Shown one piece after another: positions 2,256 through 56,938 of a stretch of 64,000 nt of DNA (positions within the stretch are counted from its first letter, which is position 1; every line of letters begins with the position of its first letter). Origin of the DNA: a virus; IMG/VR virus record IMGVR_UViG_3300003316_000080, positions 3,483 through 67,482 of that record, one strand, 5' to 3'. A program made the translations under genes and the position numbers. The notes under the pieces were generated by a model. It saw nothing but the letters and a program-made list of their open reading frames with translations, was not told the origin of the DNA and did no database searches.

Positions 2256-3832
2256 TTCTGGTGTCGCGCCATGCCATCACACGCTACCTTGACCGAGAGC
2301 TAGAAACACACAAGTGGGTCAAGAAGCTGACAGAGCGTCAGCTGTGGCAGGAACTGAAGCAGCTGCGCACTGTCCCTCAGTTCAAGACTGACCCATGGCT
2401 GCACCAACTGGCGTGCTTCTATCTGGGCCTGCACTACCTGCGCTTCCTGTTCATCCTAGACATGGGGCTGGGCAAGTCGAAGTTGGTGATTGACCTGATC
2501 GAGCACCGTTTTCGGCAGAAGCGTCTCAGCATGCGCCGCGACGGACGCACAGCGCTGGTGATCGTTCCAGGCGTGCTGAATACGGTTGGATGGGGTGAGG
2601 ACATCGAGCGCCATTCACTCATGGAACCGCACCTGATCACGTGCGAGAACATTGAGCAGAAGCGCTATGAACTGCTGCACCCACAAGGTGAAGTGACCGT
2701 GATCGACATGCCGTCGCTTGCCCTAGCACTGTCCACCAAGAAGAAAGGCAAGGGTCGTGGCAAGTTGCTGGCAGACAAGCAGGCGATTGCACGCGCTCAG
2801 CAGTTGTACGGTTTCATTGGCGTTGATGAGACGCACAAGTACAAGAACCACGAAACCCTGTGGTACGACGTGCTCGATCCTCTGTGTGCAGCAGCCGACG
2901 AGGTGAAGGGGCTGACTGGAACCATCTTCAGTGCAAGTCCGATCGAGATGTGGCCGCAGTTTAATCTCGTCGACCGAGGTGAGACGTTCGAGAACCGTGG
3001 ACTCTTCCAGGCGGCCTTCTTCGACTCGAAGTCAGATCATGTGAAGGGGACTGTGTACACCTTCAGGCCTGAGAGGACACGTACTCTCAACAGGATGATG
3101 CAGCACCGCTCGATTCAGTATGACGAATCGGAGGTGCACGAACTTCCAGAGCGCGTCTATCGTCCGATCAGGATGGAACTGGCAGGCGAAGCGGACGAGC
3201 ATTACCGTCGCGCTCTGGAAGGTGTCATTAATGTTGGCGCCGCCGAGAGTAGCAAGCTAGATGGAGGCTGGGTGCGCATGCGCCAGATCTGCGGTGGCTA
3301 CCTGAAGTGGTCTGATGCACACGGAGCGCACAAGCTCATCTTTGCACAGAACCCGAAGTTGGACATGCTGATGCGCCTGCTGGAGGACATCGGAAGTAAG
3401 AAGGCTGTTGTGTGCCATGACTACACCGACAGCGCGGAACTGATCGAAGCGCGGTTTAAGAAGGAGGGCATCAAGTACGCCACGTGCTCAGGGCGGACGA
3501 AGGACAAACCGGCAGAACGCGCTCGCTTTCTCGATGATCCAACCTGCCGCGTCTTCTTGATGCAGAACGCGGCTGGGGGAACAGGCACTGACGGCCTGCA
3601 GAAGGTGTCCAACTACATGATCTTCTTTGAGTCGCCAGCCTCCCCGGGTCTGCGCAAGCAAGTAGAAAAGCGCATACATCGTCCAGGTCAGACACAGAGG
3701 GCGTTCTACTACGATTTGACATATGGGCGCACCGTCGATAGCGGCATCCGTGAAGCACACAAGCAGGGTTTTGACCTATACGAAGCCGTGATGTCTGGAC
3801 GCTCTTCGACCTTGAGAGGGCTCATGAGTTGA
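2252..3832 (+). CDS. SF2 helicase, SNF2/DEAH-like
   Basis: Motif I LDMGLGKS, motif II GVDETHKYKN, C-terminal helicase domain with GGTGTDG and HRPGQTQ. Confidence 0.7.
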   Translation: MILVSRHAITRYLDRELETHKWVKKLTERQLWQELKQLRTVPQFKTDPWLHQLACFYLGLHYLRFLFILDMGLGKSKLVIDLIEHRFRQKRLSMRRDGRTALVIVPGVLNTVGWGEDIERHSLMEPHLITCENIEQKRYELLHPQGEVTVIDMPSLALALSTKKKGKGRGKLLADKQAIARAQQLYGFIGVDETHKYKNHETLWYDVLDPLCAAADEVKGLTGTIFSASPIEMWPQFNLVDRGETFENRGLFQAAFFDSKSDHVKGTVYTFRPERTRTLNRMMQHRSIQYDESEVHELPERVYRPIRMELAGEADEHYRRALEGVINVGAAESSKLDGGWVRMRQICGGYLKWSDAHGAHKLIFAQNPKLDMLMRLLEDIGSKKAVVCHDYTDSAELIEARFKKEGIKYATCSGRTKDKPAERARFLDDPTCRVFLMQNAAGGTGTDGLQKVSNYMIFFESPASPGLRKQVEKRIHRPGQTQRAFYYDLTYGRTVDSGIREAHKQGFDLYEAVMSGRSSTLRGLMS

Positions 3833-6941: not shown

Positions 6942-6977
6942 AGGGGCCCTGTATATTGCGGGGCCCCTTTTCTTTTG
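6942..6977 (+). terminator. rho-independent terminator
   Basis: GGGGCCC/GGGCCCC stem followed by TTTTCTTTT. Confidence 0.6.
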
Positions 6978-23484: not shown

Positions 23485-23520
23485 AGGCCCCTGACTCAAC
23501 ATCAGGGGCCTTTATGCTTT
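23485..23520 (+). terminator. rho-independent terminator hairpin between convergent units
   Basis: AGGCCCCTG...CAGGGGCCT stem followed by TTATGCTTT. Confidence 0.5.
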
Positions 23521-27501: not shown

Positions 27502-27921
27502 ATGGACGAAAAACGCAAACGTGGTCGGCCGGCTGGAGCAATGAACAAGCTCAGTCAGGAGGCTGTCAACCTCGCAAAGCAGACAGGTAAGTTGCCCCAT
27601 GAGATCTTGCTAGAGATCGCACGGGGCAATCCCATTTGTGTGCTGAGTATGGAAGAAGGCGTTCTGAAGCCTGTCTATGTCATGACAGATCCTGCACAGG
27701 TGCTTGATGCAGCAAAGGCAGCAGCACCGTACTTCGCGCCGAAGATTTCTACAGTTGAAGTGATTGCAGGGGTATCTGACCATGAACTTGATCGCATCAT
27801 TGCGCTCGCTGCCGCCGAAGCAGGCATTAGCCTTGGCGCTAGCGGAGAAGGCGAAGAGACAGAGGAAGAGGAACCAACTGAGCGAAGCAGCCGAAAGGGC
27901 CGTAGACAGCTACGCGAGTGA
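27502..27921 (+). CDS. terminase small subunit
   Basis: N-terminal KRKRGRPAG DNA-binding-type motif, PYFAPK motif, acidic tail; directly upstream of large terminase. Confidence 0.6.
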   Translation: MDEKRKRGRPAGAMNKLSQEAVNLAKQTGKLPHEILLEIARGNPICVLSMEEGVLKPVYVMTDPAQVLDAAKAAAPYFAPKISTVEVIAGVSDHELDRIIALAAAEAGISLGASGEGEETEEEEPTERSSRKGRRQLRE

Positions 27922-29629
27922 AGCAGAGGGGCCTCCTGTCCCTCTGCAGGTTTCCTCAGTCGTACTAGACGACACGCACGTAATCAGCCAACTGCTTACA
28001 ACAGGCAAGTTGTGTGCGGGTCCGTCTGCACAGCACATCCGCTACAAGATCTACTGGGGCGGTCGTGGTGCTGTGAAGTCGTGGGGCATGGCAGAAGCAC
28101 TAGTACGTCTGGCAGCTGCCAAGCCTCTACGCATACTGTGCTGCCGTGAGTTTCAGAACTCGATCAAGGACAGTGCACACAAACTGCTGAAAGACACGAT
28201 CGAGAGACTTGGTCTGTCTACGTGGTTCACTGTCACTGCCGACAGCATCAAGTCTCGTGTCGGTGCAGAGTTCATGTTCAAAGGCCTGCACAACAACGAG
28301 AACGGCATCAGGTCGACTGAAGGCGTAGATATCTGCTGGGTGGAAGAAGCACACAGCGTTACTGCACTTAGCTGGCAGAGCCTACTGCCCACGATCCGTG
28401 GTGACGAGTCAGAGATCTGGATCTCGTTCAACATGGTCGAAGAGAGTGATGCTACGTACCAGATGTTCGTAGCAAATGAACGCCCTCACTCGATCGTTCA
28501 CCACATCAATTACGACAGCAATCCGTTCCTACCGAAAGTGCTCCGTGATGAAATGGAGCACGACAAGAAGACGGACTACGCGCTGTACGAGCACATCTGG
28601 CTGGGCAAGCCTCGCAAGCGTAGTAACGCAATCGTCCTCAACGGCAAGTACCGCATTGAGGAATTCCCAGATGATCTGTACGAACACGCAGATAGGTTGT
28701 TCTTCGGTGCTGACTGGGGCTATGCAGAAGATCCGTCCACGCTGGTGCGTTGCTTCATCCTGAACAACAAGCTGTACATCGAGTACGAGGCATACGGCAA
28801 GCACATCGAACTGAACGACTACGCTGCGTTCTATGACCAAGTGCCCGGGTCACGTGACTGGCCTATCTATGCCGACAGCGCGTTGCCAGCAACGATCTCG
28901 CATGTGCGCGGTCTGGGCTTTGCGATCGATGCGGCAGAGAAGTGGCCGGGCAGTGTCGAAGACGGCATCAAGCATCTGCGGGGGTACGACGAGATCATCA
29001 TTCACCCGCGCTGCAAGATGGCGGCCGACGAGGCTTACAAGTGGCGGTACAAGGTCGACAAGAAGGTGCTGGATGCCAACATGCAGCCACTCGTACTGCC
29101 CACGCTGGTAGACGCACACAATCACTGCATTCCGGCTGGCGTGCTTGTGTCTACTGCGTGTGGCGATGTGCCTATTGAGCAAGTACAAGTAGGCGACCTC
29201 GTGTGGACGCGTGTTGGTCTGCGTCCTGTGTTGTGGGCAGGTGCCACAGACACGAACCGTGAAGTGCTGGAGATCACGTTGTCATCTGGTCATGTAGTGC
29301 GCTGCACTCCTGACCACGAAGTCTTCGTGAATGGTGAGTTCATTCGTGCAGACGCTGCTCAGGTGTCTGACAACATGAACACACTCGACAGCACGGCACA
29401 TGGCAGGCGAATTGGCACTGCGTCTGTAGTCTCTATCACTCGCATCGCGGAAAAGGCTGATGTTGTCTATGACGTAACGGTCGATGGACAACACGAGTTC
29501 TTCGCGAATGGTGTGCTGGTTCACAACTGCTGGGACGCGGTCCGGTACGCCCTACATGGCTACATCCCCAGATCGGGTGAGATGGGCGTGTGGAACAGAC
29601 TAGGCGCCCAAGCTCTGGGACAATCCTGA
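27782..29629 (+). CDS. terminase large subunit, intein-containing
   Basis: Walker A-like YWGGRGAVKS, C-terminal nuclease domain; start uncertain (first in-frame ATG overlaps TerS by ~140 nt). Confidence 0.8.
   Translation: MNLIASLRSLPPKQALALALAEKAKRQRKRNQLSEAAERAVDSYASEAEGPPVPLQVSSVVLDDTHVISQLLTTGKLCAGPSAQHIRYKIYWGGRGAVKSWGMAEALVRLAAAKPLRILCCREFQNSIKDSAHKLLKDTIERLGLSTWFTVTADSIKSRVGAEFMFKGLHNNENGIRSTEGVDICWVEEAHSVTALSWQSLLPTIRGDESEIWISFNMVEESDATYQMFVANERPHSIVHHINYDSNPFLPKVLRDEMEHDKKTDYALYEHIWLGKPRKRSNAIVLNGKYRIEEFPDDLYEHADRLFFGADWGYAEDPSTLVRCFILNNKLYIEYEAYGKHIELNDYAAFYDQVPGSRDWPIYADSALPATISHVRGLGFAIDAAEKWPGSVEDGIKHLRGYDEIIIHPRCKMAADEAYKWRYKVDKKVLDANMQPLVLPTLVDAHNHCIPAGVLVSTACGDVPIEQVQVGDLVWTRVGLRPVLWAGATDTNREVLEITLSSGHVVRCTPDHEVFVNGEFIRADAAQVSDNMNTLDSTAHGRRIGTASVVSITRIAEKADVVYDVTVDGQHEFFANGVLVHNCWDAVRYALHGYIPRSGEMGVWNRLGAQALGQS
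29126..29527 (+). mobile_element. mini-intein within terminase large subunit (134 aa)
   Basis: Begins CIPAGVLV (block A), TPDH (block B), ends GVLVHN followed by +1 Cys; no endonuclease domain. Confidence 0.7.
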
Positions 29630-29654: not shown

Positions 29655-31892
29655 ATGCCACGTGTCTTGACACCATCGCCTCTCACCGCCGAACTGCGTG
29701 CGGCAGGGTTTCCATGGGCAGATGATTCCGGTGTACTGCGCGCTGCCGATGGCACTGTCATCAGTAGCGGTGGGGGTGCGTCGACCTTCACTGCGCTGAC
29801 GGATAGTGCGAGTGCAGACATTCCTGCCACCAATGCACCGACAGCAGCAGCACTCGCTCTGAAGGCTAGTCTGGTGAATGGCGGTGTACCGACATCGCAA
29901 CTGCCGCGATCCACTGCAGCCGTGACGCTCTCTGCAACGACGAGTGCAACTCCCACAGACGGCACCTTTGCTGCGCTGCCGGCGCAGGCGTGTACGGAAC
30001 TGGAGGTATTCAACGACAGCCAAGTGCCCGTCGAGTACCGCCGTAATGGCGCCGGCAACGTCGTCACACTCCTGGCGAATCAGCGTCGCCGCATCCTCGG
30101 CATCACCGACGCCAGCCAGATCGCATTCCGGCGCTCTGACTACGCAGTGGCCGGCCGGACGCAGCCGACGACGATCTCTGTCCGTGCTCGCACGAACACG
30201 GACACGTACACGCTTGCCGGCACGCTGTCGATGGTGCTCAGTGGTGGTTCGTACACGGCGTTTAGCAGCCTCGCGTGTACGTCCATGGAGATCTTCAACA
30301 ACTGCAACCACGACATCCTCTTCACGATCGACAGCGGCACGGCGTACAAGCTGCGTCACGGTGAGTCGGCTGTGATTCTGGGCATCGCCAACGCCAACCA
30401 AGTGCGTGTCAAGACCTATGATTCGATCGCTCGTCAATCTCGCAATCTCGAGGCCGAGTGCTGGACGGTAGGTCTGGGTCGGGAGACGCTGAGTCCGTAC
30501 CGTGCAGACGCCATCACGGCTGAAGCCGACATTCTCAACGGCGAGCCCAACTATCCGAACCTTCAGCCAATCGGCGCGGTCCTGACGCTGGGCAACCTGC
30601 GTCCTGTGCCGCGTCTGCGCAAGAAGCCGGTGGAGTTGGCGAAGTGGGATCTGGCGGCCAATGTGGTCACCAACCGTGCGGCTGACTTCGCTGACATCAC
30701 ACCGGCCGCTGTGGGCAAGGACGAGATTACCTTCGGCACCACGATCGTCGAGTACACGCAGTCTCAGACGGCGGAAGTACTGATCGCTCCTGCTGGTGTG
30801 CAGTCCACACCGGTCGACGTCTCCAATGGCTCGATCCACTTCACGCATGTGTGGCCGGACAACGCCGGCAACAACTACGGCGTGAACGGGCCTTCCAGCT
30901 TCATCATCGAACTGCACAGCGCGGGCTCGCCGTCAGCGCCCACGGCCAACTACCACACCAGTGGCGTACTGAACTCGCTGAATGCGGGCTTCATGGGCGC
31001 GTCCACGCTGGGCTATAACCTGCAGCGCTGCTTCTCTCTGCCGATCAACGCATTCACTGCGGCTGGCACGGGTGCTACGCTGACGGCGATCACCTGGGCC
31101 CGCATTCGCATCACGGGCCCGTCGGCGTCCAACGGCTGCAAGTTGCGCCCTGTCCGCCTCGACTTCGTGCCCAACGCGTTGACGAAGGGGACGGTGATCT
31201 TCACCTTCGACGACCTGCACGCGGGCGCCTGGACCAACGCGCTGCCGATCATGTCGAAGTACTCGTACCCGGGCGTCCTGTGCATGGACACCACGGTCAA
31301 GATGGGCCAGTCAGGCTTCCTGACACCCGAGCAGATCATTCAGATGCACCAGACGTACGGCTGGGAGGTCGGCTATCAGGTCTATCAGAACGAAACGGGG
31401 TTCAACCTCAACTCCGAATCCTGGATGCGCCAGGTCGGCAAGTGGGTGCTGGAGATGAACCGTCTGGGCATCCACGAGACGTACAACGGCTCGTACGGCT
31501 CGGGCACTGTGACGAACGTCGACGAAGAACGGCTGATGGCTGCTCGCCGTGCACTGTCGACGATGCGTCGCTTCACCAGTGGCACGAACACGTCCCCGCC
31601 CTTCAAGAACCCGGAGACGGTGCCCTACGGCGACCCGTACAACCTGCGGTGCCTCAACATGAGCAGTGGCTTCACGGCCGGCACGATCTACGATCGCTGG
31701 AAGGATCACGTCGATCAGGCCGTTGCTGCAAAGGGCGTGGCGATCTTCGCGTGTCACAGTGAATTCAACGGCGCCGGTGAAGCGCTGACGGCACTCGGTA
31801 CGCTCTGCGCGTACATCCGCACGCTGGAACTGGCCGGCAACTGCCAAGTGACCACCTTCGCCGGTCTGAACAAGCAGGCTTACGGGGTCTGA
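29655..31892 (+). CDS. large protein with C-terminal polysaccharide deacetylase (CE4/NodB-like) domain
   Basis: AAGGGGA RBS; C-terminal VIFTFDDLHAGAWTNALPIMSKYSYPGVLCMDTTV matches the NodB motif-1 region; N-terminal ~450 aa Ser/Thr/Ala-rich. Confidence 0.55.
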   Translation: MPRVLTPSPLTAELRAAGFPWADDSGVLRAADGTVISSGGGASTFTALTDSASADIPATNAPTAAALALKASLVNGGVPTSQLPRSTAAVTLSATTSATPTDGTFAALPAQACTELEVFNDSQVPVEYRRNGAGNVVTLLANQRRRILGITDASQIAFRRSDYAVAGRTQPTTISVRARTNTDTYTLAGTLSMVLSGGSYTAFSSLACTSMEIFNNCNHDILFTIDSGTAYKLRHGESAVILGIANANQVRVKTYDSIARQSRNLEAECWTVGLGRETLSPYRADAITAEADILNGEPNYPNLQPIGAVLTLGNLRPVPRLRKKPVELAKWDLAANVVTNRAADFADITPAAVGKDEITFGTTIVEYTQSQTAEVLIAPAGVQSTPVDVSNGSIHFTHVWPDNAGNNYGVNGPSSFIIELHSAGSPSAPTANYHTSGVLNSLNAGFMGASTLGYNLQRCFSLPINAFTAAGTGATLTAITWARIRITGPSASNGCKLRPVRLDFVPNALTKGTVIFTFDDLHAGAWTNALPIMSKYSYPGVLCMDTTVKMGQSGFLTPEQIIQMHQTYGWEVGYQVYQNETGFNLNSESWMRQVGKWVLEMNRLGIHETYNGSYGSGTVTNVDEERLMAARRALSTMRRFTSGTNTSPPFKNPETVPYGDPYNLRCLNMSSGFTAGTIYDRWKDHVDQAVAAKGVAIFACHSEFNGAGEALTALGTLCAYIRTLELAGNCQVTTFAGLNKQAYGV

Positions 31893-31897
31893 TCGCC

Positions 31898-32239
31898 ATG
31901 GCAACAACACCCACTCCAGCAGCACGCACTCTTGTGGTGGGCCCGAGTGCTTTCCGCGTCATCGACTTCGGCAAGCAGGCTCAACTCGATCTGTGCTTTG
32001 ACTGGTCGCAGACGACGTGGCTGACTGCGATCACGTCGTACACGCTGTCAGTTCCTTCTGGGCTCACCATCGAAGCAGAGAGCTTTGCCGACAAGAAGGT
32101 GACGGTCACACTGAAGTTCACTGATCCCACTGCGCTGTACGAAGGGCAGCTGTTCGATGTGGAGTGCGAGGTGATCACGAACGACACCCCTCCCCTGTCT
32201 GACACACGCAGCATCACCGTGCGTGCAGTCAGTCGCTAG
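31898..32239 (+). CDS. hypothetical protein
   Basis: Immediately follows the 745-aa gene. Confidence 0.45.
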   Translation: MATTPTPAARTLVVGPSAFRVIDFGKQAQLDLCFDWSQTTWLTAITSYTLSVPSGLTIEAESFADKKVTVTLKFTDPTALYEGQLFDVECEVITNDTPPLSDTRSITVRAVSR

Positions 32240-32461
32240 CGTGCGTATACTGGGAGCGGGCGGACCGGAACGCCGCCCCTCCTAGTCTTGTCTCCTCCTG
32301 CGATATAGAGCAAAGGGCTCCTCCTCACGGTGGGGCCCTTTCAATTTGTGCGTCTGACAGTTCGCCACTCCCCCAAAAGGGGGATGTAATGTCTTACAGG
32401 TTGACGCCGGACAATTCTCACGTTCCTTCAACGAACGTGCTCTATGAACAGGAGAACTGCC

Positions 32462-32572
32462 ATGAAATGGATGTACCGCTTCGGCCTCGCGGCCGTGCTC
32501 GCCTTCGTCTCTTCCCTCGGGCATGTCCAGGCCACGGACGCACACCCACAAGCACAGACAGCGCGGCAGTAA
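32462..32572 (+). CDS. small secreted peptide (36 aa) with signal peptide
   Basis: AGGAGA RBS; MKWMYRFGLAAVLAFVSSLGHVQA then TDAHPQAQTARQ; too short for the ORF track. Confidence 0.35.
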   Translation: MKWMYRFGLAAVLAFVSSLGHVQATDAHPQAQTARQ

Positions 32573-32584
32573 ACAGTTTCTGCC
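32565..32584 (+). promoter_or_regulatory. palindromic CAGTAAA..TTTCTG motif
   Basis: GGCAGTAAACAGTTTCTGCC followed by TATATAGGG. Confidence 0.4.
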
Positions 32585-32633
32585 GTATATAGGGCGCGGG
32601 AGCGATCTTGCGCCCTTTCCTTTTGGAGAACTC

Positions 32634-33239
32634 ATGAGCTACTCATTCACCAAGCGTGCTGCGACACGCTCAGCCTTGCTGGCGCTGGTCTGCCGTGAAC
32701 TCGATGTGATCGCGAAGCAGCAACCCCTGCATGAACACGATTTCGACCAGATCCTGAGCAACTTCGCCAATGCCGCGTCACTGGTGGCGCCGGACAAGGA
32801 TCGTCCCTACTCCGGCCACATGCTGCAAGCCGCGCTGAACGGATATGTGTCGTGGCGCAGCCGCAAGCATGAAGGTATCGAAGAGCCCGAGATCGTCGGC
32901 GTCAACATCTCGTGCAGCGTGTCGTGGTGCCAGATGACGCAAGCCGAACTGGCGGACGAGGCTGCGACGCGTGTGAGCGACCCCAGCGTGTACGGCTCCG
33001 GCGAGGGTGCGAATCCCCAAGTGGGCAATCCGCCTTACGGACAGGAAGAAGGCAGCGCTTACACGCCGCCGATCAACACGCAGATGTCGGCCATGGAAGC
33101 TGCCATCACCCGTTCTGGCCCGGCGCACCAGCCCCGTGATGAAGGCCCCTGCGGCATCACGAACTGCGATGCTTCGTGTGACAACCACAAGGGCTGCAGT
33201 GGCCTGACTGACACCGGCACCGGCCTGGGCACGGACTGA
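32634..33239 (+). CDS. hypothetical protein
   Basis: TGGAGA RBS then ATG (MSYSFTKRAA). Confidence 0.5.
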   Translation: MSYSFTKRAATRSALLALVCRELDVIAKQQPLHEHDFDQILSNFANAASLVAPDKDRPYSGHMLQAALNGYVSWRSRKHEGIEEPEIVGVNISCSVSWCQMTQAELADEAATRVSDPSVYGSGEGANPQVGNPPYGQEEGSAYTPPINTQMSAMEAAITRSGPAHQPRDEGPCGITNCDASCDNHKGCSGLTDTGTGLGTD

Positions 33240-33241
33240 CC

Positions 33242-33625
33242 ATGGTCACTGGTGAGTACCCAGTGCCTGGGACGGGCACCAAGGCGGCTGGTGTGGACGT
33301 CGGCGCCATCGTGCAGTCGCGTGACGCTCAGTACGGCGGCTTCGCGAACGTGGCGCGTGTCACGCAGACGATCAAGCACATCATTCGCGAGGAAGCGGAA
33401 GGCAGTCGTTTCCGTGCGATGACTGCCGACCAGCAAGAAGCCCTCGATATGATCGCTCACAAGATGGCGCGGATCATCTGTGGTGACGCTAACTGCATCG
33501 ACTCGTGGGCTGACATCGCCGGCTATGCGAAGCTGGTGGCTGATCGTCTGCAGTCAAGCGACAAGCCGGCCTGCGGCAGCGCAAGGCCGATGACGCGTCC
33601 TCACGACATCGGCACCGACCACTGA
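33242..33625 (+). CDS. hypothetical protein
   Basis: ATG 3 nt after upstream stop. Confidence 0.5.
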   Translation: MVTGEYPVPGTGTKAAGVDVGAIVQSRDAQYGGFANVARVTQTIKHIIREEAEGSRFRAMTADQQEALDMIAHKMARIICGDANCIDSWADIAGYAKLVADRLQSSDKPACGSARPMTRPHDIGTDH

Positions 33626-33642
33626 TCGACACTTGACCACCG

Positions 33643-33672
33643 AGGGCCCGTATACCTGCGGGCCCTTTTCAT
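33643..33672 (+). terminator. rho-independent terminator
   Basis: GGGCCCG...CGGGCCC stem followed by TTTTCATTT; same hairpin family as 6942-6977. Confidence 0.6.
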
Positions 33673-33685
33673 TTGGAGAAACAAG

Positions 33686-33889
33686 ATGAACGAGAGGCTC
33701 ACGGGACGGATACGACATCGACTCGGGTATGAAAGTGCCGGAGGGTTTCGGCCGCCACGCGCTGTGTTGGTCCTGCAAGTTGAAGTGTCACGTGAGGACG
33801 GGCCGCCCGATGGACAGGGCATGCCTGCATATCTGGCTGCTGTCTATTGGCGTGATGCCCGTGTCGAAGACATGCACCTGATCACATGA
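33686..33889 (+). CDS. hypothetical small protein
   Basis: GGAGA RBS. Confidence 0.4.
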   Translation: MNERLTGRIRHRLGYESAGGFRPPRAVLVLQVEVSREDGPPDGQGMPAYLAAVYWRDARVEDMHLIT

Positions 33890-34177
33890 ACATGCCAACC
33901 TGGGCTGACGTGGCGACCCTCGTCGCCTTCATCATTGCGGTTGCTGTCGTGGACCGCTTACTAGACTGGATGGACGAATGAACACACATGCTGCGGAAGG
34001 GCGCGCTCTTCAGTTGCGCTGCGCGTGTGAAGGCTGCGCAGAGGTTGCTGCCACACGGCGCCAACTGACTGCATATCATAACGACGATAGCAACTGGAAC
34101 TAGTTGTGCTTGTGGCACCAAGCTGAAGCCGATGCGTACTGGCAGGAACGCTGGGCTGACTACTATGGAGGTCTGCT

Positions 34178-34372
34178 ATGACTGAACTGACACGTGTCCG
34201 CAACGAAGAACGATGCAAGGCTGTGCCGGGCGCGTACATCACTGATGACGGACACGTGCTTGTGGACAGCACCAACGCAACGTCACCACTTGAAGTGCTG
34301 TGCGCGATCGCAGTGCTGGTGACTGCAAGGACAATGCGTCGGATGAAACACCCGCCCGTGCCGACACGATGA
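34178..34372 (+). CDS. hypothetical small protein
   Basis: GGAGG RBS; ATGA overlap with downstream HNH gene. Confidence 0.35.
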   Translation: MTELTRVRNEERCKAVPGAYITDDGHVLVDSTNATSPLEVLCAIAVLVTARTMRRMKHPPVPTR

Positions 34373-34824
34373 AGCTCACCAAGAAACAACGTGAAGCCCT
34401 TAAACAGAAGTTCGGGGGCTTTTGTGCATATTGCGGCTGCAAACTTGGTGAGCGCTGGCAGGCGGATCACATACAGGCCGTTCAGCGCAGTGTGCAGGGA
34501 CATTGGGTGCGCCAAGACCCTAGCAAGCGCTGGTCGCCGATGGTGTTCAAGCGCACCGGCGTCACTGTGGGTCGGCCGGAACTGGACATCCTTGACAATC
34601 TTGCACCAGCGTGCGGACCTTGCAACGGCGATAAGTCCGATATGGACCTAGAGACGTGGCGCCATCGCCTCTCTCAAACATTGACCGTGCTGGGCAACAA
34701 CTACGGTCGGTACAAAGACGCCCTGCGCTTCGGGTTGATCGTCGAAACCCCCAAGCCCATAGAATTCCACTTCGAGCGGTGGCAACGGACCCCGCGCCGC
34801 CAACTGAAAGAGGACACCCTATGA
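34369..34824 (+). CDS. HNH endonuclease (packaging-associated position)
   Basis: CAYCGCKLGERWQADHIQAV...NLAPACGPCNGDK; immediately upstream of portal. Confidence 0.75.
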   Translation: MKLTKKQREALKQKFGGFCAYCGCKLGERWQADHIQAVQRSVQGHWVRQDPSKRWSPMVFKRTGVTVGRPELDILDNLAPACGPCNGDKSDMDLETWRHRLSQTLTVLGNNYGRYKDALRFGLIVETPKPIEFHFERWQRTPRRQLKEDTL

Positions 34825-36383
34825 GCAACAAGGTATCCGTGCGCGCTGCCAAGCAAGCTGCCGTCCGGGAGGACACGCGGGCCCGTAAACAACTTACTGG
34901 TGATGCTCAGCCACAGCTAGGTGCAGTCACCACGATCGACAGCTTCCAGAACCTCGCTCATCGTCTGGGCGTCGGTGCGGATAACGTGCTGTCCTACGGC
35001 TCATATGCCTTCAACCCCCTCACACGCAACCGCGTGCTGCTGGAGTGGATCCACCGGGGCTCGTGGATCGGCGGGCAGGCGATCGACATCATCCCGGAGG
35101 ACATGACGAAGAACGGGATTGAGATCGAAGGCGAGATGGACCCGGCTGATGTGCAGCACATCGAGCGCATCGCCACTGCAACTGATGTGTGGGGGCAGAT
35201 CAACGAAACGCTGCAGTGGGGACGCCTGTACGGTGGCGCTATCTGTGTGGCGCTGATCGACGGACAGGATCTGCGCACGCCCCTCAATCTCGATACCGTC
35301 GGCACTGGGCAGTTCAAGGGCCTGCTGACGCTGGACCGGTGGATGGTGGAACCTACACTGGAAGACCTCGTGACGGAGATGGGCCCTCATCTGGGTCTGC
35401 CGAAGTACTACCGCGTCAACGACAGTGCCCCGGCCCTGCGTGGCCGTGTCGTGCACTACACGCGTGTGATGGTGCGGCATACGGGCATCAAGTTGCCGTA
35501 CCAGCAGCGCCTGCAAGAGAACCTGTGGGGCATCTCGGAACTGGAGCGCCTGTATGACCGCATGCTGGCCTTCGACACAGCCACCATGGGCGCAGCACAA
35601 CTCGTGTCCAAGGCGTTCTTGCGCACGCTGTCGGTGGAGAACCTGCGCGATGTGGTCGCTGCTGGTGGCAAGCCTCAAGCAGGTCTGTACAGCTACGTCG
35701 AGATGATGAGGCGCTTCCAGGGCGTAGAAGGCATCACGCTGATCGACGCCAAAGACAAGTTCGAGGCACAGGCAGGCGCCCTCACCGGCATGACGGGCAT
35801 CAAGGAAGTGCTGCTGAGCCTTGCTGAGCAACTCGGCGGCGCGCTGCAGATGCCACTGACGCGATTGCTGGGCCAGTCGCCTGGTGGCCTGAACAGTGAC
35901 GGCGACGGCGAGATGCAGACGTACTACAGCGGCATCAAGCGGCGCCAGGAAAGAGATCTGCGCTTCGGCGTCAACACGATTTATCACCTGATCGCACGCT
36001 CGATCGGCATCAAGATTTCTGACGACGTCAACATCAGTTTCTGCGATCTGTTCGAGCAGTCTGACGACAAGAAGTCGGATATCGCCACGAAGACGGCGAC
36101 GGCAGTCACGGAAGCCTATGACGCCGGCTTGATCAATCAGCAGGTCGCTATGAAGGAACTGCGTCAGTCCTCGCGCCGTACTGGTCTCTTCTCCAATATC
36201 ACCGCCGAGATGATCGAGAACGCAGACGAAGAGATCCAGGCGCCCGGCATCGAGGAACTGCAAGCGGCCATGAAGGCTGGAGGTACGGAAGATGGCAACA
36301 ACACCCCGCCGAATGGGCAGCAGCAAGAGAAGCCGGTGGGAGCCGAAAAGACACCTCGCAAACAGCTACTACAAGCAACTTGA
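34821..36383 (+). CDS. portal protein
   Basis: AAGAGGA RBS; ~520 aa acidic protein between packaging and head-morphogenesis genes. Confidence 0.65.
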   Translation: MSNKVSVRAAKQAAVREDTRARKQLTGDAQPQLGAVTTIDSFQNLAHRLGVGADNVLSYGSYAFNPLTRNRVLLEWIHRGSWIGGQAIDIIPEDMTKNGIEIEGEMDPADVQHIERIATATDVWGQINETLQWGRLYGGAICVALIDGQDLRTPLNLDTVGTGQFKGLLTLDRWMVEPTLEDLVTEMGPHLGLPKYYRVNDSAPALRGRVVHYTRVMVRHTGIKLPYQQRLQENLWGISELERLYDRMLAFDTATMGAAQLVSKAFLRTLSVENLRDVVAAGGKPQAGLYSYVEMMRRFQGVEGITLIDAKDKFEAQAGALTGMTGIKEVLLSLAEQLGGALQMPLTRLLGQSPGGLNSDGDGEMQTYYSGIKRRQERDLRFGVNTIYHLIARSIGIKISDDVNISFCDLFEQSDDKKSDIATKTATAVTEAYDAGLINQQVAMKELRQSSRRTGLFSNITAEMIENADEEIQAPGIEELQAAMKAGGTEDGNNTPPNGQQQEKPVGAEKTPRKQLLQAT

Positions 36384-40903: not shown

Positions 40904-41569
40904 ATGGACACAAGAGTTCGCAAGGTTTACGCGTTGATGGACCCACGTGGGGCTGTAACCAGCGTCCGATATGTCGGGTGCACGCTTCAGAAGATTCTGA
41001 ACAGGTTGCAGTCCCACATTTACGAAGCAGAGACGAGTCCTGATGTCACACCAAAGCTTGTGTGGTTGCGAGCGCTGGCCGACGCGGGTTTAAAGCCTCT
41101 GATCGTGCACTTGGAAACAGTGGCACCTGAAGACGACTGGCAAGAGCGTGAGAAGTACTGGATCGCGAAATACAGCGGACCTGAATTGCTCAACACAACG
41201 ACAGGTGGTATCGGGGCACAGGGTTTAGCCCAAGATGTTCGTGATCGAATTTCGGAAGCGCTGCGCGGTCGTAGCCTGAGTGAAGAGCACAAAGCAAAGC
41301 TACGGAAGAACGCAGCAGAGAACCCATACAAGCACACAGAAGAAGCGAAGCGCGCTATCTCGGAGTCCAAGAAAGGTCTGAAGTTAGGACCCTTGTCCAA
41401 CGAAGCCAAGCAGAAACTGCGTGATGCCATGGGCTCTCTGGTGTGGATCACCAACGGGCGGGAAAACCGACGTGTGAAAGCAGATGCCATTCCGGCTGGG
41501 TGGCAGAAGGGGCGAGCCCCAAAGGACCAGCCAAAGCAATCACGCCGCGTACTTCGCGACGACCTTTAA
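40904..41569 (+). CDS. GIY-YIG homing endonuclease with NUMOD3-like repeats
   Basis: KVYALMDPRGAVTSVRYVGCT (GIY-YIG); C-terminal repeats HKAKLRK, EEAKRAISESKKG, NEAKQKLRDAMG. Confidence 0.8.
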   Translation: MDTRVRKVYALMDPRGAVTSVRYVGCTLQKILNRLQSHIYEAETSPDVTPKLVWLRALADAGLKPLIVHLETVAPEDDWQEREKYWIAKYSGPELLNTTTGGIGAQGLAQDVRDRISEALRGRSLSEEHKAKLRKNAAENPYKHTEEAKRAISESKKGLKLGPLSNEAKQKLRDAMGSLVWITNGRENRRVKADAIPAGWQKGRAPKDQPKQSRRVLRDDL

Positions 41570-41902: not shown

Positions 41903-42373
41903 ATGGACTGCTCTACCTCGGATGTGGTTGTCACGGTGACGGGCTTTCGGGAGACGTTTCCCGAGTTCGTCAACGACGTGGCGTACCCGGCGTACATGAT
42001 CGAGCCGCTGCTGACACTGAACAAGCAGCTGGTGAACCAAGCGCGCTTCGGGGATCTGACGGCCTACATGATCTACCTGCGCACTGCGCACATGCTGGTG
42101 ATCCAGAAGCAAAGCATGAACGCGGCGGCACGCGGGGGTGTGCCGGGGATGTCGGTCGGACCCATGAGCAGCAAAGGCGCTGAAGGCATGTCGGCTTCGT
42201 ATGAGGTCGGTGCCGTCATGGAAGACGGTGCGGGATGGTGGAATGGCACCGTCTACGGCCGTATGTGGTGGTCGTACAAGAACCTGTTTGGCGCAGGTCC
42301 CATGCAGGTCGGTGGCCCCGGTCCTGCTGTGCTGACGGCGTGGCCGGGCCCAGGTGGTTTCTTCCCTGTGTGA
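41903..42373 (+). CDS. hypothetical head-tail joining protein
   Basis: GCAGGAG RBS; position between capsid and tail genes. Confidence 0.45.
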   Translation: MDCSTSDVVVTVTGFRETFPEFVNDVAYPAYMIEPLLTLNKQLVNQARFGDLTAYMIYLRTAHMLVIQKQSMNAAARGGVPGMSVGPMSSKGAEGMSASYEVGAVMEDGAGWWNGTVYGRMWWSYKNLFGAGPMQVGGPGPAVLTAWPGPGGFFPV

Positions 42374-53660: not shown

Positions 53661-55745
53661 ATGGCGACCAATGAATTTCTGCCCTTTGCCACAGACGCTG
53701 GCGCCGAGGTTGATACTCAGGCTGTGTGGGCTTCTCCTAGTGGTTACCGCCCGGTAGGTTATGGACCTGGGATTCTGACGAAAGAAAAGCTGAACAAGGC
53801 TCTTCGTCAGAGCACCTCTATCGCCTCTGCCGTCGCTCAATTGATGGCAGAGAACCTGCCCAGTGAAGACATCCTGGATAACGGTGACATCAACACGTTG
53901 GTGGACCAACTCTCGCGGGCTGTGATCACCGGTACATTCCTGAGTGGCACTGCCAGCACGCAGGGCTCGAACGCCGTTGGCACGCGTCAGAACTTGGCAG
54001 GGGCTGTCGATCGCACACAACATGAAAAGAACGCCGACTTCATCAGCGTGAAGGATTTCGGTGCTGTTGGTGACGGTGTGCACGATGACACGACGGCTTG
54101 CGTGGCCGCAGCCACGGCCGCTCTTGCAGTTGGAGCGGGTCTGTATTTTCCAGACGGCCGCTATTACATCAACGGACTTTTCAGTGTCCCGAACAAAGTA
54201 TCTTTGTATGGGTCTGGTAAGACTACCAGCGAGATCCAGTTCGGTTCCTCTGGAAGCCTTCGTGTGGTCGGCACATCACCCAGCTACGTGGGGCGTTTGT
54301 CTATCAGTCGACTAGGCTTGACCAATCAGGGCGCGGGTTCCCCCTTCGGCATTCAGTTCACGTATGCGACTCGCATCACGATGTACGACTGTGTCGTCTA
54401 TAACACCAGCATTCAACTGTCTGCGTTCTCGTACATCACCTTTGAAAACTGTGACCTGTTTGGTGGCAGCATTCAAGGCGACCACCCCACAGTCAACGAG
54501 ATCAGTGAAGCACTGAAGATCATCGGCTGCAACGGCAGCAACTTTGCGATTAACGTGAAGGACACTGCCGACGTTCTCGTGTCACGTACACATCTGCTTG
54601 GGCCCACCTCACAGATCATGATCCAGCGTGGCGAGCAAAACAGCGCGTTTTACCCACCTGTACAGATTGCCAATTGCATTGTGGATTCTGGTGATGATGA
54701 AGGCATTTATCTGATTGGCGTTGCGCCAAGAATTTCGGATACCTTCGTCAGCAGTGGTCGCACCAACCTGAAGTCAGGTGTGCGCTTGAATGATTGCATT
54801 GAAGGCAGCTTGATCGGTGTTACGGCGCGCTTTTGCGGCAATCATGGTCTGCATGTTGGCTTCAGCAAGCAGATCAAGGTTTTGGGGGGCCATTTTGACG
54901 ACAACAAGGTGTCGGGTGTGCGTATCGGTGATTCGTCAGATCTGACTTTCATCGGCAATACGATGATGAACCAGCCATCGTGGTTCGGTGGTAGCTACCC
55001 ACAGGTAAACGGCATCACGGATGAGCCCTCGAACTGCACGAACATCACATGCATCGGAAATCAGACGGTGGGCAACACGAGTGCTCAGGTGTACCTGCCG
55101 TCTGCTACCAACATCATCCACAGCAACGTCGGATACAACGAAGGTCGCCTGACCTGTGATAGCTGGCGCAACAACACGGACAATGCGGCGTCTCTTGGGA
55201 CTGCCGGCGCTAGATACACCGTGGTGCATGCGGTCAGTGGCACCATCAACACGTCAGATGCCAATGAAAAGCAGGATATCGAAGATATTCCTGTGGAGTG
55301 GTTAGAGGCATGGTCCTCCGTAAGGCGTGTGCGCTTCAAATGGAAGGACGCTGTGCAGAAGAAAGGCACCGGTGCCCGTTGGCACATCGGTCTGATTGCA
55401 CAAGAGATCTGGGAGGCTTTCGCCGCTCGCGGTATCGACGCGTTCGAGATTGGTCTTCTGTGTTATGACGCGTTCGAAGAAGTACCAGAGCGCACGGTGG
55501 AAGTGCCTGAAATCCCGGCACTCGTCATCGAGCACCCAGAAGTTCCTGAAGTGCTGGATGAAGACGGCCGTGTCATACAAGAATACAAGCCAGGATGGCA
55601 CGAAGTGGTCGAAGAAGCGCAGCCAAGCCGTGTAGTAGTCGTCCAGGAGTACAAGCCTGCTGGTGGTCGCTATGGTGTGCGTTACGAAGAGGCTGAGGCA
55701 CTAGAGGCCGCTTGGGTTCGCTGGAAATTGGAATCTCTTCAGTAA
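53661..55745 (+). CDS. tailspike: pectate-lyase-like beta-helix with C-terminal S74-type intramolecular chaperone
   Basis: KDFGAVGDGVHDDTTA (pectate-lyase-superfamily start), repetitive beta-helix region, C-terminal SDANEKQDIEDI...WHIGLIAQEI. Confidence 0.65.
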   Translation: MATNEFLPFATDAGAEVDTQAVWASPSGYRPVGYGPGILTKEKLNKALRQSTSIASAVAQLMAENLPSEDILDNGDINTLVDQLSRAVITGTFLSGTASTQGSNAVGTRQNLAGAVDRTQHEKNADFISVKDFGAVGDGVHDDTTACVAAATAALAVGAGLYFPDGRYYINGLFSVPNKVSLYGSGKTTSEIQFGSSGSLRVVGTSPSYVGRLSISRLGLTNQGAGSPFGIQFTYATRITMYDCVVYNTSIQLSAFSYITFENCDLFGGSIQGDHPTVNEISEALKIIGCNGSNFAINVKDTADVLVSRTHLLGPTSQIMIQRGEQNSAFYPPVQIANCIVDSGDDEGIYLIGVAPRISDTFVSSGRTNLKSGVRLNDCIEGSLIGVTARFCGNHGLHVGFSKQIKVLGGHFDDNKVSGVRIGDSSDLTFIGNTMMNQPSWFGGSYPQVNGITDEPSNCTNITCIGNQTVGNTSAQVYLPSATNIIHSNVGYNEGRLTCDSWRNNTDNAASLGTAGARYTVVHAVSGTINTSDANEKQDIEDIPVEWLEAWSSVRRVRFKWKDAVQKKGTGARWHIGLIAQEIWEAFAARGIDAFEIGLLCYDAFEEVPERTVEVPEIPALVIEHPEVPEVLDEDGRVIQEYKPGWHEVVEEAQPSRVVVVQEYKPAGGRYGVRYEEAEALEAAWVRWKLESLQ

Positions 55746-55793: not shown

Positions 55794-56153
55794 ATGAGCC
55801 ATAACAGCTTGGAGGAGCCTTTCCGTTTGGGCAATGTGCCTGACGGACTGGCTTCTGGGGAGGCCAAGATCCTTGCGCAGATGATCATTGCCGTTGATCG
55901 TCGGTGCGAGCAGACGCACGAGGATCTGCCCGACATGATCTCAACCGCAGTGGCACGGCACCTGGAGGAGCGTGCATTGACGCCGGAGCAGCGGCAGTTC
56001 CTGCTGATGCTGATCAAGCGTGAAGAGCGACGCGATGCCCTGCGCAAGGCAGTGATCGAAAAGACGGTGACGGGTCTAATGTGGTCCCTCGTCGTGGCTG
56101 CAGGCGTCATCCTGCGGGAGTGGTTTCAATCTCACATGGGGAAGACGCCGTGA
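55794..56153 (+). CDS. putative holin
   Basis: Small protein with C-terminal TM helix, directly upstream of lysozyme. Confidence 0.4.
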   Translation: MSHNSLEEPFRLGNVPDGLASGEAKILAQMIIAVDRRCEQTHEDLPDMISTAVARHLEERALTPEQRQFLLMLIKREERRDALRKAVIEKTVTGLMWSLVVAAGVILREWFQSHMGKTP

Positions 56154-56938
56154 GCAAACTCGACGATGCCATCGCGCGACTGAATGCGCGGAACTTCAAC
56201 TGGCCCATTCCCTGGGAGGTCGTCGAGACGATGGCCCGCAAGGAGAACTGCTTTCTGGTCGCGTATCTGTGCCCTGCCGGCGTGTGGACGTGCGGCTGGG
56301 GCGAGACAGAAGGTGTGACGGCTTCGACGCGCTGGACGGCTGATCAAGCTGACCAGCGCTTCTTCGATTCCGTCAGCAAGTTCGCGGCCAAGGTGGAAGC
56401 GCTGTGTGCCGACGCACCTACCACACCGAACCAGCTGGGCGCCATGACCTCACTAGCGTACAACATTGGACTGGCCGGCTTCAGCACCTCGTCTGTGCTG
56501 AAGGCCCACAAGCGTGGAGAGAGTGCTGCTGCGGCCCGCGCCTTCTCCCTGTGGAACAAGATGCGTGTGGGCGGCAAGGGTCCGCTGGTGGAAGCTCGGG
56601 GCCTGACGGCCCGGCGCGCCATGGAAGCGGCGTTGTACCTCAAGCCCGAAGATGAAGCACCGGCCGAACTGACCAGTCAAGCCGTTGCTGACGAGAGCAA
56701 GCTGACAGCCTCGCCGATCAGCCAAGCCGGTGCTGCCACGGCGGCCACAGGTGTCGCGGCGACGCTGGCCTCCGTGAACGATCAGGCATCGACGGTGCAG
56801 ACGCTGACGTCGACGGTTGCCGGTATCGCGACGTCGATCGGTGTCCAGCCTGGGGTGCTGCTGGGCGCGGTGCTGGTGGGTGCCGGCGCTGTCACGTTGT
56901 ACTGGCGCTACCAGCAGCGCAAGGGTGGCTGGGCGTGA
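56150..56938 (+). CDS. endolysin, lysozyme-like with C-terminal membrane anchor
   Basis: GTGA overlap; GVWTCGWGETEGVT lysozyme catalytic motif; C-terminal hydrophobic helix. Confidence 0.7.
   Translation: MSKLDDAIARLNARNFNWPIPWEVVETMARKENCFLVAYLCPAGVWTCGWGETEGVTASTRWTADQADQRFFDSVSKFAAKVEALCADAPTTPNQLGAMTSLAYNIGLAGFSTSSVLKAHKRGESAAAARAFSLWNKMRVGGKGPLVEARGLTARRAMEAALYLKPEDEAPAELTSQAVADESKLTASPISQAGAATAATGVAATLASVNDQASTVQTLTSTVAGIATSIGVQPGVLLGAVLVGAGAVTLYWRYQQRKGGWA

Follow-up and report, generated by a model that had tools for sequence, protein, structure and literature searches.

The question raised by this locus is why 5,191 bp separate the stop codon of the large terminase subunit gene (TerL, 29629) from the start of the portal gene (34821), and what this island encodes, in IMG/VR virus record IMGVR_UViG_3300003316_000080. 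The sequence analyzed, called the window below, was the 64,000-nucleotide (nt) stretch from position 3,483 to 67,482 of that record, and coordinates are those of the window unless a contig is named. A preliminary description of the island had read it as a moron or accessory insertion between terminase and portal that carries its own regulatory signals and is a likely location for host-interaction or anti-defense functions. The features it listed, namely a 745-amino-acid (aa) protein, small open reading frames (ORFs), a 36-aa signal-peptide ORF, a terminator and an HNH gene, were all recovered on the + strand, at or near the positions assigned to them. The reading towards which we lean, with confidence slightly above even, is that the junction is a recombination hotspot holding three units: a late virion module of ORF745 and ORF113 (a neck fiber on an immunoglobulin-like (Ig) adaptor), a hairpin-bounded cassette, and a group of tiny ORFs with an HNH gene.

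Variability of the TerL-portal junction

The two flanking genes were assigned as follows.
27782..29629, + strand: large terminase subunit TerL, left flank (Pfam Terminase_3, E 5e-39)
34821..36383, + strand: portal, right flank (Pfam Phage_portal_3, E 2e-87)

The program-made TerL ORF was 27764-29629, and 27782 is its probable true start. All coding in the gap is on the + strand, and the gap contains ORFs of 745, 113, 36, 201 and 127 aa, four tiny ORFs, the HNH gene and four strong terminator-like hairpins. The only identical sequence found was a Logan contig, which is the same phage reassembled from SRR1926121; gene calls on it gave the same set minus ORF67, the 31-aa ORF and the 41-aa ORF. 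G+C content at third codon positions (GC3) was 0.69-0.77 in ORF745, ORF113, the 36-aa ORF (sp36), ORF201 and ORF127, which supports coding, and was weaker (0.54-0.60) in ORF67, the 41-aa ORF (ORF41) and ORF64, for which coding status is uncertain on these sequence properties. Long minus-strand ORFs over ORF745 were rejected as high-GC artefacts. The idea of a compositional island was also rejected, as base composition and codon usage of the island carried no foreign signature.

When 27.5-36.5 kb was compared by megablast with 50,697 GenBank phages, no match appeared, and a search of IMG/VR and JGI metagenomes for a closer relative found none, with best portal identities of 54-62%. TerL and portal were located by tblastn in all fetched loci, and the gap was compared in 36 + 27 relatives (about 60, some duplicated between collections), all of which hold both genes. 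Gap length ranged from -45/30 bp to about 6.4 kb. The shortest gaps were about 0-30 bp (L164, L119) and 240-370 bp (L031, L165, L170), and the longest were 5.3-6.4 kb (L037, L040, L041, L067). Against gaps of 30-370 bp in L119, L165, L170, L031 and others, the 5,191 bp found here bear out an accessory insertion between terminase and portal. The closest annotated phage, Edwardsiella myophage vB_EpM_ZHS, has four small unrelated genes in the same gap, which is 1.7 kb long.

Cargo was unrelated among the relatives. It included an N6/N4 DNA methylase, a peptidase and a topoisomerase-IB-like protein, as well as a TnpB/IS605 element, a Big_2 protein and a number of large proteins without assignment. 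None of ORF745, ORF113, sp36, ORF201, ORF127, ORF67 and ORF64 was found in the gap of the approximately 60 relatives; the first five were thus not conserved structural genes at this position, and the accessory reading stands. HNH was the sole island gene that recurred, in about 5 distinct relatives of the approximately 60 and at differing positions. Because gap length varies and cargo is unrelated, with only HNH recurring, the junction is a hotspot of very high variability, and at the distant evolutionary range covered the island is accessory and lineage-specific.

Two observations concern the gaps of the relatives themselves. Some gaps encode proteins of 294-710 aa that have an N-terminal leader in common, 'MAKHIHIH...KHPR..NGQFG.GGGG', and differ in their C-termini (L028 2380-3264, L035 6265-7668, L037 5584-6531, L039 2658-4790, and L049 4666-5619, the last being the topoisomerase-IB-like protein); this leader may serve to package or target the cargo proteins. 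The TnpB/IS605 gene (OrfB_IS605 and Cas12f1-like TNB) lies at L064 1181-2269.

ORF745, a putative fiber with an exchanged body

The largest gene of the island and its parts were delimited as follows.
29655..31892, + strand: ORF745, putative virion fiber or spike (GC3 0.77, homologues, AlphaFold2 (AF2) model, Foldseek)
aa 1-35: N-terminal anchor, phage-specific
aa ~37-86: linker, low confidence
aa ~89-272: two tandem beta-sandwich repeats of ~95 aa
aa ~326-506: beta-rich lectin-like domain
aa ~512-745: C-terminal CE4/NodB-like alpha/beta domain
29761..31909, + strand: horizontally exchanged block (blastn against contig L007, 85.9% nucleotide identity; both junction sequences inspected)

ORF745 starts 25 nt past the TerL stop behind a good Shine-Dalgarno (SD) sequence, GAAGGGGAA, and phrog_19032 matches its N-terminal part twice. 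Among 5.8 billion proteins, 18 homologues were found besides the query, nearly all without annotation; tblastn against the 50,697 GenBank phages returned only a stretch of about 60 aa in small proteins of Erwinia N4-like phages. In the family alignment, unrelated N-termini are joined to a conserved body. Homology to the L007 DNA begins at codon 36 of ORF745 (29761) and ends at 31909, which is 17 nt past the ORF745 stop and 12 nt inside ORF113. The body has been swapped horizontally onto a phage-specific anchor, and the breakpoints are defined. A distal part swapped onto such an anchor is a textbook signature of receptor-binding proteins, and anchor swapping is typical of tail fibers.

The genomic context of ORF745 homologues is structural in at least six other phage contigs. 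In three contigs resembling podophages with a P22 portal (L002, L008, L009), the homologue lies directly 3' of two SU10-type adaptor genes, and in L004 and L098 (the latter a contig of Roseateles chitinivorans, a Burkholderiales species that has the nearest genomic homologue) it lies directly 3' of a P22-like portal. The siphophage-like contig L007 has a 92%-identical homologue between a 1,383-aa gpJ-like tail-tip gene and endolysin/lysis genes. A further homologue, on L006, stands beside a Peptidase_M15_3 gene on a contig in which no phage structural gene was identified.

The AF2 model of ORF745 had a mean pLDDT (predicted local distance difference test) of 72.7, with the beta domains and the C-terminal alpha/beta domain well predicted. 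Its best match in the PDB by Foldseek was the HFTV1 turret head protein 8qpg_TA (E 1.1e-14, TMt 0.62, 497 aligned columns), at a sequence identity of only ~14%. The CE4 deacetylases 3rxz, 7ax7, 6hm9 and 5lgc followed (E 5e-6 to 2e-4, probability 1.0), in accord with a distorted (beta/alpha) barrel fold. Matches in BFVD were phage proteins whose annotation reads polysaccharide deacetylase, esterase or minor tail protein, and the HFTV1 protein was also retrieved there. HFTV1 gp31 (PDB 8QPG) stands on capsid hexamers as a trimer. It combines a galactose-binding-like domain with a deacetylase-like domain that contains Zn, and its proposed role is to bind host glycans and modify them ahead of tail engagement (Sci Adv 2025, PMC12494034). 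ORF745 is like gp31 in its domain order, with a lectin-like beta-sandwich first and a polysaccharide-deacetylase-like domain at the C-terminus. It is unlike gp31, a 413-aa protein of an archaeal siphovirus held on the hexamers by a beta-barrel base protein, in its length of 745 aa and in its extra anchor, linker and two beta-sandwich repeats. No turret-base homologue was recognized among the neighbors of ORF745, ORF113 being Ig-like.

The main rival to a neck location follows from this match: ORF745 would be a capsid decoration like the HFTV1 turret head, standing on the hexamers, possibly via ORF113 as a Hoc-like Ig base. The fold match favors the capsid, the HFTV1 protein being by far the best structural match; ORF745 is also encoded in the head module, two homologues lie directly 3' of the portal, and Ig-like proteins commonly decorate hexamer centers (as does the Hoc-like protein of Bas63, PMC12609058). 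The homologue contexts, however, favor the tail or neck. The L007 homologue, between a gpJ-like gene and a lysis cassette, occupies a classic side-fiber position, three homologues follow SU10 adaptor genes, and the swapping of N-terminal anchors is of the tail-fiber type. Furthermore, ORF113 matches a neck adaptor family and not a beta-barrel turret base, and the capsid already has a cement protein of the E217/XM1 type. We consider a turret location rather doubtful.

For the C-terminal domain, the PF01522 (CE4/NodB) score of ORF745 was 20.0 bits, below the cut-off of 23.1; the L098 homologue scored 23.4 bits, and homologue P0004 has a precomputed hit. A PDB profile search returned PgaB/BpsB (E 7e-5) over motif 1 only. 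This CE4 motif, which supplies the catalytic-base Asp and a metal-binding Asp, is present as FTFDD (F516-T-F518-D519-D520) and aligns with TFDD of PgaB/BpsB. F516, F518, D519 and D520 are invariant among 18 family members, as are R632 and H701, and H701, which sits in ...FACHSEF, is a candidate for the catalytic His of CE4 motif 5. Motif 2, H-[ST]-x-x-H, was not seen in the conserved block past GWEVG, which reads YQVYQN at about 574-579 with an invariant Q575. H522 is nearly invariant and could, from its conservation, substitute for the missing metal-binding His. As H-[ST]-x-x-H is not evident and PF01522 is below cut-off, catalysis by ORF745 is uncertain, which tells against the enzymatic part of the reading that we favor; from sequence and model, deacetylase catalysis is plausible but unproven.

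No signal peptide or transmembrane (TM) segment was found in the ORF745 sequence, so a surface-polysaccharide enzyme or lectin encoded here could reach its substrate only from the virion. The proposed host-interaction function gained support for this largest gene from its lectin-like and CE4-deacetylase-like domains. The anti-defense half of that proposal gained no support but is not refuted either: the PADLOC scan of the island returned generic HNH similarity only, and no search against a collection of anti-defense proteins was made.

Known modular tail fibers and tailspikes offer a comparison. ORF745 shares with them a variable N-terminal anchor, an exchanged receptor-binding or enzymatic body, and homologues across morphotypes. 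It differs in that its domain has the CE4/NodB fold and its gene lies between terminase and portal, not in the tail module. The virion esterases characterized so far (G7C gp63.1, Vi-antigen acetyl esterases) are, to our knowledge, of the SGNH type.

ORF113, a Gp77-family Ig-like protein

The gene that follows ORF745 was assigned by profile.
31898..32239, + strand: ORF113, Ig-like, Gp77 family (GP4 'fiber-tail adaptor'; Pfam PF23148)

ORF113 starts 5 nt past the ORF745 stop and scored 32.0 bits on PF23148 (cut-off 27, E 1.9e-7) over 81/84 profile positions; the precomputed PF23148 hit on the identical database protein agrees. A full HMMER scan retrieved as relatives Gp77-like proteins of 89-124 aa, with stand-alone ones of 89-109 aa among them that align with ORF113. 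Closest to ORF113 is P0024 (304 aa), whose C-terminal domain is 58% identical to it. The AF2 model is a six-stranded beta-sandwich (pLDDT ~90 over aa 30-110), and Milano neck proteins appeared at E ~0.05 in its Foldseek list. A PDB sequence search with ORF113 returned nothing significant. In contigs L094-L096 the head-module order is TerL - portal - Gp80 - x - x - Gp77 - protease/MCP (major capsid protein), so a neck-adaptor gene near the portal is normal for the Gp77 family.

According to the DEV paper (PMC11445570), which summarizes Zheng et al. (2023, J Mol Biol 435:168258), gp77 of the Ralstonia podophage GP4 is a 93-aa Ig-like protein, 15 copies of which ring the head-to-tail adaptor and hold fibers. 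Homologous Ig-like collar and whisker assemblies occur in myophages Bas63, Sf14 and XM1 (PMC12609058). ORF113 is comparable to GP4 gp77 in its Ig-like domain of about 90 aa, its place in the head module and its position beside a large fiber-like gene, and a ring is predicted here by analogy. ORF745, for its part, has no relationship to Fiber-1 of GP4 or to the whisker of Bas63, and there is no 'rope' protein or extension of the GP4/Bas63 type.

The breakpoint within ORF113 allows a different account, in which ORF745 is a conventional baseplate or tail side fiber, and ORF113 is what remains, without function, of a longer Ig-domain protein that was truncated by the recombination that imported ORF745. 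In agreement with this, L007-type DNA ends 12 nt inside ORF113, the 304-aa P0024 has an N-terminal repeat region that ORF113 does not, ORF113 has no clear SD, and homologues of ORF745 occur in tail modules. But ORF113 keeps a complete Ig domain with a GC3 of 0.69, and belongs to the length class of stand-alone Gp77-like proteins of 89-109 aa; the 5-nt spacing permits translational coupling to ORF745, which itself is encoded beside the head genes and far from those of the baseplate. On this evidence the account as a whole is quite improbable.

Hairpins, promoters and transcription

All four strong hairpins lie within 32250-33677.
32250..32348, + strand: two tandem terminator-like hairpins 3' of ORF113 (32250-32285; 32315-32338 with T-tract to 32348)
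32591..32626, + strand: terminator-like hairpin, 11-bp stem and T-tract, running into the ORF201 SD
33642..33677, + strand: terminator-like hairpin of the preliminary description, 11-bp stem (33642-33667) and T-tract, running into the ORF67 SD

The RNA fold z-score was -4.9 for 32240-32470, the tandem hairpin region. Three island hairpins have the 3' tail GSGCCCTTTYMWTTTG in common, which has 4 matches in the window vs. 0.27 expected. Nothing in Rfam exceeded the gathering scores, and sub-threshold small RNA hits were the terminator hairpins. Elsewhere in the window, a further hairpin with this tail motif was seen at 6962-6977 and a perfect bidirectional terminator hairpin at 23485-23510.

A scan for sigma-70-type promoters found 0 sites vs. 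2.8 expected, and no convincing -35/-10 pair was seen by eye in the conserved leader of sp36. Of the regulatory signals that had been attributed to the island, the terminators are therefore real and enriched, and a promoter of the sigma-70 type was not found. No terminator-like hairpin was detected between TerL and ORF745, the first ones following ORF113. With a gap of 25 nt and no intervening hairpin, ORF745 and ORF113 are probably co-transcribed with TerL, which is at odds with a moron. This arrangement is as expected if the two genes are expressed late, along with those for packaging and the head, and for the main cargo, which looks like a virion structural module, the moron reading was not upheld.

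The moron concept is said to go back to Juhala and colleagues in 2000. The island is like morons in being extra DNA between genes that are adjacent in some relatives, in being bounded by hairpins and in having a content that varies by phage. It is unlike them in that no promoter was found, its largest unit is structural-looking and probably co-transcribed with TerL, and its composition is not atypical. Taken to its full extent, this explanation would make the whole island non-structural cargo, independently transcribed, for host manipulation (e.g., lysogenic conversion of surface polysaccharide) or counter-defense. It can draw on the hypervariable locus, at which relatives carry non-structural methylase, TnpB and topoisomerase-like genes, on the partition of the island by four terminator-like hairpins, on the resemblance of sp36 and its conserved leader to a self-contained unit, and on ORF201, ORF127 and the tiny ORFs, which are without assigned function. 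We nevertheless doubt it strongly, given the negative promoter scan, the absence of an export signal from ORF745 although its fold acts on extracellular polysaccharide, the placement of ORF745 homologues within structural modules, the origin of ORF113 in a structural family, and the lack of defense-related hits in PADLOC. It may apply to the sp36-ORF201-DUF6378 cassette only.

The sp36-ORF201-DUF6378 cassette and the tiny ORFs

Downstream of the tandem hairpins the following ORFs were listed.
32462..32572, + strand: sp36, 36-aa ORF with signal-peptide-like N-terminus and SD AGGAGA (sequence; Logan call)
32634..33239, + strand: ORF201, with Cys/Gly-rich C-terminal tail (the program-made 238-aa ORF starts too early)
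33242..33625, + strand: ORF127, DUF6378 protein (Pfam DUF6378, 30.5 bits vs. cut-off 27.1)
33686-33889, + strand: ORF67, weak GC3, absent from L092
33886-33981, + strand: 31-aa TM peptide, conserved in L092
33978-34103, + strand: 41-aa ORF (ORF41), weak GC3
34178-34372, + strand: ORF64, weak GC3

The sequence of sp36, MKWMYRFGLAAVLAFVSSLGHVQA|TDAHPQAQTARQ, is a plausible Sec signal peptide. ORF201 had no match in Pfam, PHROG, NCBIfam or PADLOC, and only two homologues among the 5.8 billion proteins; in IMG/VR, an exact sp36 search and an ORF201 protein search found nothing. ORF127 matched phrog_16943/17775/474 and gave nothing significant in a PDB sequence search, and in the literature on DUF6378 the domain is mentioned in annotations only. 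The tiny ORFs are joined by overlapping ATGA junctions and had no PHROG or NCBIfam family hits, the TM peptide alone having outside support.

That support comes from two small contigs of one sample, L093 and L092, which overlap by 19 nt at a hairpin, so that a second phage could be reconstructed. Its order is a 607-aa Ig-domain protein, a 304-aa Gp77-like protein, a hairpin, sp36, a hairpin, the ORF201 homologue (88% nucleotide identity), the adjacent DUF6378 homologue, a hairpin and the TM peptide. Common to both phages are the sp36-ORF201-DUF6378 block and the upstream Gp77-like domain, and not ORF745 or ORF67. The sp36 peptide is 100% identical in L092, both nucleotide differences being synonymous. 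The window is ~99% identical to L092 over ~260 nt (32388-32650), a stretch that spans sp36, its leader of ~75 nt, the downstream hairpin and the ORF201 start, and the flanks are 85-88% identical. The ~99% stretch may reflect constraint or recent conversion. The cassette could be moron-like.

HNH and other genes of the head module

The remaining island gene and an insertion in its left flank are of mobile types.
34369..34824, + strand: free-standing HNH endonuclease (Pfam HNH, 24.3 bits vs. cut-off 21.4; phrog_2118, E 2.8e-43)
29126-29527, + strand: mini-intein of 134 aa inside TerL (Pfam Intein_splicing/Hint; CIPAGV...GVLVHN|C)

The HNH motif is visible as CxxC...DH...N...CxxCN, and the stop of the gene overlaps the portal start (ATGA). 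From its sequence and its sporadic occurrence among the relatives, the gene is probably homing-type and selfish. A role as terminase packaging cofactor, as in HK97-like cos phages, was rejected, as HNH is missing from most of the relatives that have this TerL and portal. The NCBIfam scan gave nothing meaningful. The intein splits TerL between LVDAHNH and CWDAVRYAL, where the ZHS TerL is uninterrupted; among the relatives, about half gave a TerL match in two pieces that skip the intein, and in the remainder the match ended at the insertion point. A free-standing endonuclease-like ORF with a NUMOD3 motif (40904-41569), a candidate GIY-YIG type by sequence, lies directly 3' of the major capsid gene, which brings the selfish-element-type genes of the head module to three (HNH, TerL intein, NUMOD3 ORF).

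Genes 3' of the portal are Mu-F, DUF2213, cement protein and MCP, and these, with a DUF4054 connector (41903-42373), neck terminator and DUF3383 sheath, form a head and neck set of the E217/XM1 type. Proteins of 199 and 136 aa are among those of the neck. On the other side, a 139-aa ORF (27502-27921), which is conserved in ~20 relatives and is a small-terminase candidate, overlaps the TerL start by ~140 nt in a different frame. Farther downstream, the tailspike gene at 53661-55745 encodes a pectate-lyase-like beta-helix and a Peptidase_S74 intramolecular chaperone, and is followed by a lysozyme gene (56081-56938).

Proposed arrangement and its significance

The mechanism that we propose for the three units is as follows. 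The TerL-portal junction of an E217/XM1-like myophage lineage would collect optional genes by recombination. ORF745 would be a fiber or spike with its first ~35 residues as phage-specific anchor, and its body (two beta-sandwich repeats, lectin-like domain, CE4/NodB-like domain) would have come from unrelated sipho- or podo-like phages. ORF113 would most likely form a ring at the neck (head-to-tail connector), modeled on GP4 and on the collar-whisker complexes of Bas63, Sf14 and XM1, and the ORF745 fiber would hang on this ring. There it may bind acetylated host surface polysaccharide, and perhaps deacetylate it, as a first reversible step of adsorption that complements the canonical baseplate tailspike at 53661-55745. 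The sp36-ORF201-DUF6378 cassette would travel as a unit.

Several findings weigh against this arrangement. All relatives were distant (portal identity <=62%), so synteny is informative at long range only. The presence of ORF745 and ORF113 in the virion is something we infer, and the protein that ORF745 matches best in fold belongs to a capsid, neither to a tail nor to a neck. The pairing of the two proteins is weakened by the end of the exchanged L007 DNA inside ORF113, and may be a by-product of recombination, since the Gp77-like domain of L093/L092 accompanies the sp36 cassette and other upstream Ig proteins; among ten nearby genes scanned, which are not all of the neighbors, no Gp77-like partner was found near ORF745 homologues. 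ORF113 is without the 190-aa N-terminal extension (repeat region) of P0024. Foldseek of its model against the PDB gave generic cadherin/Ig matches only, with E of at least 0.012, and GP4 gp77 was absent from the top 50, so it is the sequence profile that carries the assignment to the family.

A bolder view, which we think unlikely to be right, is that a bacterial myophage carries an archaeal-virus-turret-like lectin/deacetylase on its neck or capsid via a Gp77-type Ig ring, and that the junction is a dedicated slot swapping such auxiliary adsorption organelles (in relatives, leader-tagged cargo) among sipho-, podo- and myophages. The CE4-like domain without the canonical His-His site would then be a new metal-site variant or a lectin-type pseudoenzyme.

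Most likely, the island is ordinary though tidy phage mosaicism and not an anti-defense island, with a swapped virion fiber that binds or deacetylates host sugars, and a small adaptor protein, as its main cargo. Its elements all belong to kinds already known, be it the hypervariable locus for accessory genes, the modular receptor-binding protein with a domain of carbohydrate-esterase fold or the adaptor of the Gp77 type, and current understanding is not overturned. The analysis documents a recombination hotspot at the TerL-portal junction of a little-studied lineage of E217/XM1-like myophages of ~60-72 kb, and a fiber-body exchange across morphotypes that is precisely delimited, its breakpoints lying at codon 36 and 17 nt beyond the stop codon. 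Should ORF745 and ORF113 prove to be virion proteins, this phage would have a second glycan-active device for adsorption, the CE4-like fiber, besides its pectate-lyase-type tailspike, which would bear on host-range prediction and engineering, and the 'turret head' lectin-deacetylase architecture of HFTV1 would extend to bacterial phages.

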